Assembly: GCA_964016885.1 (NCBI GenBank)
Contig: OZ024743.1
Location: 9,052,001 to 9,116,000 of the forward strand
Length of the DNA: 64,000 bases
Direction: 5' to 3'
DNA from: Eledone cirrhosa
Lineage: Eukaryota
A program made the position numbers and the translations under genes. Every line of letters starts with the position of its first letter. The first letter of the stretch is position 1. Positions 19,015 through 40,870 of this stretch are shown here, one piece after another. A model generated the notes under the pieces. That model was not told the DNA's origin. It ran no database searches and was given only the letters and a program-made list of their open reading frames with translations.

Positions 19015-19425
19015 TTTTCTCTTTCTCTTAATTTCGAGTATATTTTTTTGACCGGCCACCTTCCTGGTGGCAAGGTTGTAAAAGAAAAGAAATTGTCATC
19101 CCTTGAATCGCAAAAATGTTTTGCAAATTGTGAAGGAGCCAGCTATCGCAGCCATTTGTAGACTATGAATTAGGGAGCTGCGCTTTTTGTCCGCAAATCC
19201 AAGTTCAGTCATACTTTGGTCCAAGCGGGTTGGTATATAACCCATAGCTCCAATAATGATGGGTATGAAGCTAAAGGTGTATCTTGGATACAGAATTTGT
19301 AAACTCCTCATCAATGGTCCGTAGATGTCCTCCTTCTCCTGTATTTTTCTGACAACGTTTACATCAAGTGGGCAGCTGATCTCCACAACAGAACACGTTT
19401 TCAATGTGTGGTCCCAAACTACAAT
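19015..19425 (-). mobile_element. 5'-truncated REL-endonuclease non-LTR retrotransposon, family A, inserted in (CATA)n
   Basis: Translates [24 protein letters not shown]...EKEDIYGPL...PIIIGAMG...KTFLRFKG* (stop 19096-19098), the C-terminal REL domain aligning with the 43.5-kb element. 3'UTR then (CATA)n; (CATA)n also at the 5' junction. Confidence 0.88.
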
Positions 19426-19509
19426 ATGTATGTATGTATGTATGTATGTATGTATGTATGTATGTATGTATGTATGTATGTATGTATGTATGTATGTATG
19501 TATGTATGT

Positions 19510-19539
19510 GTTACCAGTAGCACCAACTGGTGACCTGAC
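19510..19539 (-). mobile_element. Inverted 5' end (~30 nt) of family R copy 2
   Basis: GTTACCAGTAGCACCAACTGGTGACCTGAC is the reverse complement of the first 30 nt of copies 1 and 3. Confidence 0.85.
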
Positions 19540-19903
19540 ATAATACATATATATATATATATACATATACACACATATACATATAAATATACATATACAT
19601 ATATATATATATATATACATATATACATATATATATATATACATATATATATATACATATATATATACATATATATATATATATATATACATATATATAT
19701 ATATACATATATATATACATATATATATATATATATATACATAGATATATAATTATACATATACATATATATATATATATATACATATATACATATATAT
19801 ATATATATATACATATATATATATATATACATATATATATATATATATATACATAGATATATAATTATACATATACATATATATATATATATATACATAT
19901 ATG

Positions 19904-20458
19904 CATGGTCGGGTCGTTGGCGACTAAACTGGCAACCCCACCAAGGTTTCTTGGTGAGGAGGGTGACTTTGGACATCCTGCAGGACTAAAAACAAAACCT
20001 GCCAAAGGGCAAAGGAGTTCTTAAGAGTCAATGGCCATCCAAAATCACCGGGAGAGATGACCCCTTAGTCTTTGTCAAGGCAGAATTCTAGGAGAAGGAA
20101 AATTATGATATAACACCTGCAACCCTGATGGTATCCAATGATGTTGACTTGTTCTTCTTTTTGGTAAATATCATCTTGGTTAAGAGAGTGGGACTGGCTT
20201 TGTGCAGTGCCTTTGCTCACCATAAAAGCTTCACGGCACAGGAATTGCTTTATATCTGGAGATCTCTCTGCACTTGTCGTCACATGGTTCCACGGGCCTA
20301 GTACTATGAGTCAAGAATTGTCACAAGTGTAGTGTTTGTACCAGAGTTTTCAAGTCGCTGGCTGGACTAAAAAGTCACACTCGTTCAGCGCATCGGTAGG
20401 GGTTCTCCTACATGGATATAAAGTAGTGGCCGTACTCTAAAACGAGATGGCAGCCACC
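19904..20458 (+). mobile_element. Family R copy 2 (body)
   Basis: Resumes at CATGGTCGGGTCGTTGGCGAC, ends GCAGCCACC then (ATGT)n. Confidence 0.85.
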
Positions 20459-20550
20459 ATGTATGTATGTATGTATGTATGTATGTATGTATGTATGTAT
20501 GTATGTATGTATGTATGTATGTATGTATGTATGTATGTATGTATGTATGT

Positions 20551-20652
20551 GTTCTGGTTTTATAATTTCACAAAGTTTTACCAATAGAGAGTCGGTTTCT
20601 AACATAGACACAAGACTCTCTCATTGGAATTTAAACATCAACTAGGTAGATT
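20551..20652 (-). mobile_element. 3' end of REL family B, copy a
   Basis: Matches 21103-21210 (TTCTGGTTTTATAATTTCACAAA...CATCAACTAGGTAGA); abuts (TATG)n. Confidence 0.8.
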
Positions 20653-20872
20653 ATATATGTATGTGTGTATGTATGTGCATATGTGTATGTATGTGTGTAT
20701 GTATGTGTGTATGTATGTATGTATATATGTATGTGCGTATGTATGTATGTATGTATGTATATATGTATGTGTATGTATGTGTATGTATGTGTGTATGTAT
20801 GTATGTATATTTGTATGTATGTGTATATGTATGTATGTGTGTATGTATGTATGTGTGTATGTATGTATGTAT

Positions 20873-38859: not shown

Positions 38860-39320
38860 TGCACTGAGCCAATCCCACTCTCTGGGCGACAGTAGCTATA
38901 ACCCGAAAAGAAGAAAAGATCAACATCATCGCTTACTGAGCCTCAGGTTTTATGTCGGAGTTATCCCAGTTTTCTGAGTTGCCTTCTCCTAGTAGATTGC
39001 CCTGACAAAGGCTAGGAATCTTTCACTCCCAGTTGTTTAACTGCGCGATCAGGTATCCAGCCCGACTATTTCTATGTCCCCGCCATATACATACACATGG
39101 ATACACGTATATACATATATACATACATACACATGCATACATGTATATACATATGTACAGATTTTTGGATGGCCGTTGACTTTTATGAGTTCTTCCGCCC
39201 TTTGTAAGTTTTTGTTTTTTGTCCTGCAGGATGTCCAAATTCACCCTCCTCACCAAGTAAACTTGGTGGGGTTGCCGGTTTAGTCACCGACGACCTGGGG
39301 TACATGTTACCAGTAGCACT
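38860..39320 (-). mobile_element. Diverged relative of family R (RTE-like), interrupted by a microsatellite
   Basis: Reverse complement gives GTGCTACTGGTAACATGTA...GGCAACCCCACCAAG-TTTA-CTTGGTGAGGAGGGTG...CTAGGAGAAGG...AGAGAGTGGGATTGGC. Confidence 0.75.
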
Positions 39321-39343
39321 CTAGAGTCGATAGACAAGATACC

Positions 39344-39535
39344 AGACTTCGTCAAATCGGACCGAGGGAACAATGTTTCCATTCGTCTTTCCAATTAATA
39401 CTATCTACCAATCGCAAATCCAGGCAGAAGGAGCAATGTGAAATAAAGTGTTTTGCTCAAGGACATAAAACATCGCTCGGTCCGGCAATCAAACTCACAA
39501 CCTCACGATTGCGAATCCAGTTCTCTAATCACTCT
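39344..39535 (-). mobile_element. tRNA-derived SINE (head with GTCCTTGAGCAA), copy 1
   Basis: Homologous to 55923-56130, including the segment GACTTCGTCAAATCGGACCGAGG. Confidence 0.75.
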
Positions 39536-39732
39536 AATACCTTTACATGCATACAAACATATATATATATATATATATATATATTGGTTACACACACACA
39601 CACACACACACACACACACACACACACACACACACACACACACACACACACACACACACACACACCATCTCTTTCTCTCTCTCTCTCTCTCTCTCTTCAT
39701 ATATATATATATATATATATATATATATTTAA

Positions 39733-39921
39733 TATAGAAAAGGCTTTTACAGGACTGAACTGTTTCATTCAGGAGAAATCATCAGGAAGCCTGATGATTT
39801 CTCCCGAATGAAACAGTTCTAGTCCTGTAGAAGCCTTTTCTATACATATATATATATATACTCTGCTATGTATTGAGTACCTTACTTACTGTGGTTACCC
39901 CCGATTGAACCCGGGATAAAC
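39733..39921 (+). mobile_element. Fold-back hammerhead-like element in (TA)n
   Basis: IR of ~54-bp arms centred at ~39787-39789. CTGATGA-T-TTC-TCCC-GAA-T-GAAAC (39791-39814). 3' hairpin ACTCT...GAGT (39860-39878). TA on both sides. Confidence 0.8.
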
Positions 39922-40613
39922 CTATATATATATATATATATATATATATATATATATATATATAGAGAGAGAGAGAGAGAGCGAATGAGAGAGAGAGGAA
40001 GAGAGAGAGAACGGTTGATAGACAGCGAGAGATGTGAAGAAGGTAGATATATATAATATATACTCGTGCTTGTGTACGTGTAAAGCGTCTGACATGGTGA
40101 ACGTTTGTATCTATTTGCTGTAGAGAGAAGTTAAGGAATTGTGAGAGATAATAGAGGGAAAGAGAGAAGGTAGAACATGTTGAAATTATTAGTGAAATAA
40201 TACGTGAGAGAGAGAGAGAGAGAGAGAGAGAGAGAGAGAGAGAGAGAGAGAGAGAGAGAGAGAGAGAGAGAGAGAGAGAGAGAAAAGATAGAGAGAGAGA
40301 GACAGAGAGAACAGAGAAGAAAGAAGAAAGAGAGATAGAGATATATAGACAGATAGAGATAGATAGATAGAGATAGAGATAGAGATAGATAGAGAGAGAA
40401 AGAGTGTGTGTGTCTAAGCGAAGTATTTTCTAGCTGTGTCTGTGTGTTCGTATCTAGGAAATGAAAGCAATAACGTCTGTATATATACCAGATGTCCCAT
40501 AAGCAATGCAGCCATTTAAACATTCATTCAATGTTCAATGCTGCCTTACATTTTCTATGTATATATATATATATACACTCTCACGTATGTATGTATGTAT
40601 GTATGTATGTATG

Positions 40614-40870
40614 TTATCTCTTTCTCTTAATTTCGAGTATATTTTTTTGACCGGCCACCTTCCTGGTGGCAAGGTTGTAAAAGAAAAGAAATTGTCATCC
40701 CTTGAATCGCAAGAATGTTTTGCAAATGTTGAAGGTGCCAGCTATCGCAGCCATTTGTAGACTATGAATTAGGGAGCTGCGGTCTTTGTCCACAAATCCA
40801 AGTTCAGTCATACTTTGGTCCAAGCGGGTTGGTATATAACCCGTAGCACCAATAATGATGGTATGAAGCT
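40614..40870 (-). mobile_element. REL family A, second 5'-truncated copy in (CATA)n
   Basis: Near-identical to 19015-19272; (TATG)n immediately on both sides. Confidence 0.9.

Follow-up and report, generated by a model that had tools for sequence, protein, structure and literature searches.

Two families of retrotransposons in this genome, here called A and B, reside mostly in (CATA)n repeats in one orientation, and this one-way residence is real and robust at the sequence level. We consider it probable that their own protein recognizes the four-base repeat, likely through an N-terminal Myb-like domain together with a basic arm specific to the lineage. Both families are present in the window, by which we mean the whole stretch of 64,000 nt that was analyzed (positions 9,052,001-9,116,000 within a 3.0-Gb assembly), where the following pieces and junction tracts are found:

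18956 to 19015, minus strand: (CATA)n tract flanking A copy 1 on its 3' side, doubling as the 3' tract of a plus-strand element X
19016 to 19427, minus strand: family A copy 1, 5'-truncated, last 410 nt, with the end of the endonuclease domain without the PD motif and the 3' UTR
19425 to 19510, minus strand: (CATA)n tract flanking A copy 1 on its 5' side
20459 to 20550, minus strand: (CATA)n tract that borders the B scrap on its 3' side and is shared, as 3' tract, by an X copy
20552 to 20765, minus strand: family B 3'-UTR scrap, 79% identical to the B reference
20652 to 20874, minus strand: degenerate (CATA)n tract into which the B 3'-UTR scrap merges
20874 to 21089, minus strand: diverged B-like subfamily, 3' UTR only
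21088 to 21102, minus strand: short (CATA)n tract flanking the diverged B-like piece on its 5' side
21103 to 21659, minus strand: family B copy, 5'-truncated, with the end of the endonuclease domain (VVEISCPADAN) and the 3' UTR
21658 to 21741, minus strand: (CATA)n tract flanking the coding B copy on its 5' side
40586 to 40614, minus strand: (CATA)n tract flanking A copy 2 on its 3' side
40615 to 40871, minus strand: family A copy 2, 5'-truncated, last ~256 nt
40870 to 40951, minus strand: (CATA)n tract flanking A copy 2 on its 5' side

For family A, coordinates, identities, and tracts all agree with the first-pass annotation of the window, which had reported two loci with differing 5' truncations and (TATG)n at each junction. 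Copies 1 and 2 are 97.6% and 96.9% identical to a full-length natural copy (L036), are truncated at reference positions 3798 and 3952, respectively, and are each flanked on the 5' and the 3' side by perfect (TATG)n in plus-strand reading. Family B had been credited with the same behavior at three ends; the positions of these 3' ends (20552, 20874, and 21103) and their (TATG)n flanks stood, while their equal standing did not, as two of them are 3'-UTR scraps and coding sequence is found only in 21103-21659. Because the three B pieces stand head to tail within one array, with common tracts, and the 3' UTR of B resembles CATA repeats in its own sequence, they are not independent tests of targeting. 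The window copies of A and B are all dead fragments, from each of which the PD motif is absent. The window also contains a minisatellite of 44/132-bp period with CATA-like units (17294-18225).

Judged from their sequences, A (~4.2 kb at full length) and B (~4.1 kb) are single-ORF non-LTR retrotransposons, predicted to encode a Myb-like domain, a reverse transcriptase (RT), a CCHC knuckle, and a restriction-like endonuclease. They show the traits of the R2 group, in which a single ORF carries RT followed by the CCHC knuckle and a PD-(D/E)xK-type endonuclease, with no APE, and in which the 3' end is fixed and 5' truncation is variable (58 truncation points in 63 A copies). Exact 3'-end patterns matched genome-wide at 4,609 places for A, 5,164 for B, and 4,074 for a TAA-type control family, C, with 0 matches for reversed control patterns; the exact 5' end of A, by comparison, was matched 299 times. 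Identity to the reference copy of the family ranges over 90-99% for A, 85-95% for B, and 95-100% for C, and at the protein level A shares 51% identity with B and 33% with C. An 885-aa open frame with RT, CCHC, and the motif RPD..ELSCP.D is present in copy L038, where Pfam matches RT and zf-RVT, and copy L218 supplies the first 910 aa of the protein, its N-terminal part. Among about 20 long copies checked (A 5' ends total 299), no intact A or B ORF was found; a 1,358-aa frame (P0001) was rejected as a real ORF, its first ~470 residues being translated microsatellite. Sequencing runs of several organisms contain family A sequence, with no RNA run among those listed, and in one run (X1) loose ends at the family A 3' end read into TATG repeats. 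An Rfam scan of four loci gave only microsatellite-driven miRNA matches, all under the gathering score. An HDV-like ribozyme, which part of PMC3774820 describes for B. mori Dong, had no Rfam match here, and our own descriptor, run without a positive control, gave 0 matches in seven 5' ends. A GGA(C/T)GTG motif behind a hairpin, at most 50 nt from the 5' end, was considered in A and in four relatives described below (L262, L263, L265, and L266); it was found in 4 of the 7 references tested and in most A copies, and is a possible promoter or RNA element.

Were the repeat only a 3' tail, 5' junctions would not be enriched for it, as the first-pass annotation had itself pointed out. We classed junctions by the 20 nt upstream, at the first listed 3'-end pattern places on a single contig (C1), which were picked blind to their flanks and are not a random genome sample. 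For family A, 63 of the 73 sampled ends had their 5' junction inside the locus, and the flank was CATA in 53, TATG in one, and unclassed in nine, with 0 in the TA or TAA class; a perfect repeat run of at least 12 nt lay within 40 nt of the 5' junction in 56 of the 63. Full-length A copies had CATA at the 5' flank in 28 of 30 cases. The B sample comprised 30 ends, 21 with a 5' junction, and included four loci that represent one tandem duplication; here the CATA class accounted for 14/21 5' flanks and (TAA)n for 0/21. Across the window, the background share of positions with a 20-mer of the given class directly upstream is 1.3% for CATA, 1.3% for TATG, and 6.1% for TA. The enrichment is therefore present in both families, and the repeat as a mere 3' tail was rejected, since 5' junctions also abut (CATA)n. 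On the 3' side, a CATA repeat follows 30/30 B ends, and CATAC lies within 4 nt in 3,397 pattern matches for A, vs 4,609 ends (a few places are double-counted).

Behind the 53 A 5' tracts of CATA class we found unique or other DNA in 20 cases, element X in 20, an A or B end in 11, and the locus edge in 2. As 20 of the 53 are backed by DNA that is not the end of an A, B, or X element, arrays alone cannot account for these tracts. At the 3' end the junction keeps one phase, at the 5' end the phase is free, and five CATA-type 3' ends have the common phase ACATACAT. The 5' junctions outside the CATA class (10/63 for A and 7/21 for B) include several that resemble later deletions or insertions, and some that do not.

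The window also holds elements of TAA type, which serve as a control:

34763 to 35560, plus strand: family C (Dong-like, TAA-flanked), truncated copy, motif IVDVACP
35621 to 36059, plus strand: second TAA-flanked element, motif LIDMSVP, truncated, with stops
41822 to 43860, plus strand: family C, copy of 2 kb with (TAA)n on each side and an open frame of 654 aa, motif IVDVACP

TAA-flanked elements with these two motifs had been noted in the first-pass annotation, and they are present as described. When family C was located by its 3'-end pattern and sampled on contig C1 in the same way (30 ends, 14 with a 5' junction), the 5' flank was TAA in 12/14 and CATA in 0/14. Tx1-like open frames on the opposite strand adjoin TAA-type C copies at five loci (L162, L174, L182, L185, and L186). 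An abundant SINE-like repeat of ~200 bp (in the window at, for example, 10703-10918, 30829-31008, 41570-41793, 46593-46800, and 62988-63206) has (TAA)n flanks in at least one copy.

The (CATA)n tracts have a further occupant on the opposite strand, element X, which is likely an RTE-dependent, non-coding co-tenant of ~600 bp:

18404 to 18955, plus strand: element X copy
19904 to 20458, plus strand: element X copy without its 5' end
21742 to 22348, plus strand: element X, full copy

The last ~30 nt of X, which has a 3' stem-loop, are common to an RTE-like element (87%). X flanks are TA in 12/29 and TATG in 12/29, and an A or B end lies across the X 3' tract in only 2 of 29 copies. X is high-copy, with ~12-bp duplications at some copies (L105). 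The first ~30 nt of the copy at 19904-20458 are inverted at 19511-19540, ahead of the remainder, and a 360-nt TA-rich tract is also inverted before that copy (19511-19903). An RTE-like element with C-terminal C2H2 zinc fingers (L044:3804-5129) ends in (ATGT)n or (AT)n, and a separate locus (L128, G000:C28:61,398,000-61,408,000) is a tandem array whose ~2.2-kb unit is built from truncated pieces of B, A, and X.

The two families also have relatives outside this genome. Searching with protein sequence, we obtained 746 relatives; the best 120 of these include a block of ~39-62% identity, after which identity falls to ~33%. The nearest named homologue of A among these best 120 of 746 is an Argonauta hians protein (62%), which together with the repeat landscape suggests that the window comes from an octopod. 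In an RT tree of 471 columns, A and B group with this block as a single long-stemmed clade, separate from the C group. A second tree, with FastTree bootstraps on 61 of 108 rows and with L278 left out as a long branch (L283 was left out of both trees for low coverage), set the A/B clade apart from the TAA type in 92/92 bootstraps of this subsample (SH 1.0), and placed it with the Dong-like group of TAA type, to the exclusion of five distant loci, in 71/92, the tree containing no named R4, Dong, or Rex6 rows.

A scan of metagenome assemblies yielded 23 loci, 14 of them at 39-51% identity. Intact frames of 1,154-1,217 codons with (CATA)n at each end are found in L265, L266, and L271; L263 has (CTTA)n at each end, and L262 (5'), L267 (3'), and L272 (3') have it at one end, L267 starting with (TAA)n at its 5' end. 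The 3' end of L268 is a (TGAC/GGAC)n-like repeat, and six have no informative end. These loci are collapsed contigs that represent few assemblies, and a single assembly supplied the three CATA ones. In its 3' UTR L268 agrees with the CTTA-flanked L272, yet it ends in that other repeat, a difference that could reflect relaxed AC-N-N specificity. Members of CATA type are spread across the clade, CTTA members lie near B, and a single clade of CTTA elements was recovered in 0/92 bootstraps. Viral contigs gave 17 pattern matches, with no relative among them. On this sequence evidence, A and B likely belong to a wider sub-lineage beside TAA-type Dong that uses tetranucleotide repeats, namely ACAT in this genome and one other source and ACTT in another source. 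The ACAT-specific restriction-like endonuclease lineage postulated by the first-pass annotation thus survives as a separate clade in the RT phylogeny, but not with ACAT as its sole target: since some relatives have (CATA)n at their ends and others (CTTA)n, the lineage is better termed tetranucleotide-targeting. A distant restriction-like-endonuclease element, 35% identical to A, carries the same ~9 nt at each end (L274:1-10 and 4390-4472). We take this end to resemble the 3' end of 18S rDNA, possibly reflecting an 18S-specific insertion site.

For the protein itself, we modeled the full-length L265 product (pLDDT 91, pTM 0.83). The best structural matches of the model are R2 proteins (E 2.5e-35), and its first ~70 residues are predicted to form three helices with a flexible link to the remainder. 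When the N-terminal domain of family A was folded alone (pLDDT 80), the top ranks were taken by Zeste, TRF1, Cdc5, and other Myb/SANT domains, a weak match whose best Z of 5.6 is under the tool's trust level of 8; Foldseek gave no match to this domain at E<=0.001, and Pfam no N-terminal zinc finger. The three-helix domain can be aligned with that of TAA-type elements. Directly before the first helix, the motif R-x-Y-x5-W is found in 35/35 members of the clade whose sequence covers this region (41 aligned) vs 0/28 others (29 aligned), making it a candidate specificity arm, which may help to set the target. In Myb domains, contacts to the minor groove are made by such N-terminal arms. Since R-x-Y is common to CATA and CTTA members, this motif alone cannot separate the two. 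The endonuclease motif varies, with E..SCP in 12/41, and does not track the target. The first-pass annotation had named VVEISCP.D.N as common to A and B, and VVEISCPADAN is present in the 21103-21659 copy; EISCP as a target signature, on the other hand, was rejected, because CTTA elements have (E/D)FSCP and one CATA element has EVGIP.

Several known systems resemble A and B in part. Passages of PMC7998251 and PMC3812793 describe Dong of Bombyx mori, DongAg, DongBg, and an ostracod Dong, of the R4 clade, with (TAA)n as the target of Dong. A and B are like R4/Dong in having a single ORF with RT and restriction-like endonuclease and a microsatellite target; for R4/Dong an N-terminal Myb-like (Myb/SANT-like) domain without zinc fingers is published in part of PMC7998251, with which the fold match of the family A domain, though weak, is in agreement. 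They differ from Dong in that their lineage sits in (CATA)n or (CTTA)n, not (TAA)n (0/63 A, 0/21 B), and A differs from the TAA-type family C of the same genome, at 33% identity, in belonging to a separate clade with its own N-terminal motif. With WaldoAg1, WaldoAg2, and WaldoFs1 they share a microsatellite target, ACAY in part of PMC3812793 and ACAT in the A/B tracts. Waldo (R1 clade), however, is APE-type, while A and B have no APE and a C-terminal restriction-like endonuclease, and the ACAY-type target is convergent. Togen and the microsatellite-specific HERO families also combine a restriction-like endonuclease with a microsatellite target; as described in part of PMC4640811, they differ in repeat, (TG)n for Togen, and in placement near NeSL/HERO, which sets A and B apart. 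Octopus repeat annotations contain a "Dong-R4" class (passages of PMC9115989, PMC8967140, and PMC13282606), and the last of these gives 5 families and 1,129 young insertions in Octopus vulgaris. The class is likewise abundant and recently active, the passages concerned give no target site, and such libraries may hold unnamed relatives of A and B. Finally, R2 (R2Bm, R2Tg) provides the best match to the modeled whole protein and, by analogy, the source of a possible mechanism, while differing in its 28S rDNA target and its N-terminal zinc fingers plus Myb.

Beyond the directly observed architecture, orientation, adjacency, phase, truncation, and arrays, we propose a course of insertion modeled on R2. 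The protein would bind the 3' end of its own RNA and then a pre-existing (CATA)n/(TATG)n tract, and would nick the (ATGT)n strand in a fixed phase. Reverse transcription would be primed from the nick, often stopping early, and the cDNA would then be linked to the tract upstream, using microhomology little or not at all. An insertion would keep tracts on either side and so provide new targets, giving rise to head-to-tail arrays.

Recognition of the repeat could also reside in the RNA, if a loose endonuclease were guided by a (CAUA)n 3' tail, derived from read-through, that pairs with the nicked (ATGT)n strand. The fixed 3' phase fits this reading, as do the modest excess of 5' microhomology (at least 3 nt in 12/48 vs 7% expected) and the presence in the same tracts of X, whose acceptance of TA or TATG (12 and 12 of 29) indicates that the tracts can serve unrelated enzymes. 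However, A was found in (TA)n in 0/63 cases although (TA)n is about five times commoner, period-4 targets and the N-terminal motif are both kept across proteins that are only 40-51% identical, and part of PMC7998251 reports that the R2 site is directed by N-terminal domains; we regard guidance by RNA as unlikely. Distinctly less probable still is that insertion itself makes the tracts, by reiterative copying or template jumps onto the tail, with no long prior target. No empty site was recovered at locus L134, where the contigs of 4 runs skip the repeats and show no bridging joint, and target-site duplications are at chance level (9/117 vs 8.3 in shuffles), for which reasons we infer the pre-existing tract rather than count it as observed; in addition, 11/53 A 5' tracts come after another A or B 3' end. 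Synthesis during insertion is difficult to reconcile with A 5' tracts that exceed the 3' tracts (median 65 vs 37 nt), with the weak correlation in purity between the two sides (rho 0.32, p 0.03, n=48), and with the 27/29 X copies that have such tracts without an A or B end across.

Random insertion followed by retention in microsatellite-rich regions was proposed for Drosophila Waldo-A/B (part of PMC3812793), and this genome is rich in microsatellites. Such passive accumulation is nevertheless already largely refuted by the strict polarity of 53 CATA vs 1 TATG, and is further opposed by adjacency at the level of single bases and by family C, which sits in another repeat in the same regions; we consider it very improbable. 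Recognition of the four-base repeat by the element's own protein remains the reading that we prefer.

In our literature search, no element with a restriction-like endonuclease was described as targeting (CATA)n or (CTTA)n, which does not establish absence from print. We tentatively suggest that A, B, and their relatives are an undescribed, old, and widespread clade sister to Dong/R4, which would read four-base repeats through a single Myb-like domain with an R-x-N-R-x-Y arm and would have switched between ACAT and ACTT by small changes. If so, they would offer a natural AAT, ACAT, and ACTT series for studying how the site of insertion is set by a reader of one domain, and intact members are available (L265, L266, L271, L262, and L263). 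Site-specific retrotransposons are under development for gene insertion, and how a target is changed is an open question for which R4/Dong, with one Myb-like reader and no zinc fingers, is the simplest case. The very many target copies limit the use of these elements for safe-harbor insertion. As this one genome contains families of both the TAA and the CATA type, and the targets of CATA and CTTA members are one base apart, domain swaps are directly testable. Within this genome, CATA targeting would explain the stacks of retroelements that are nucleated by microsatellites.
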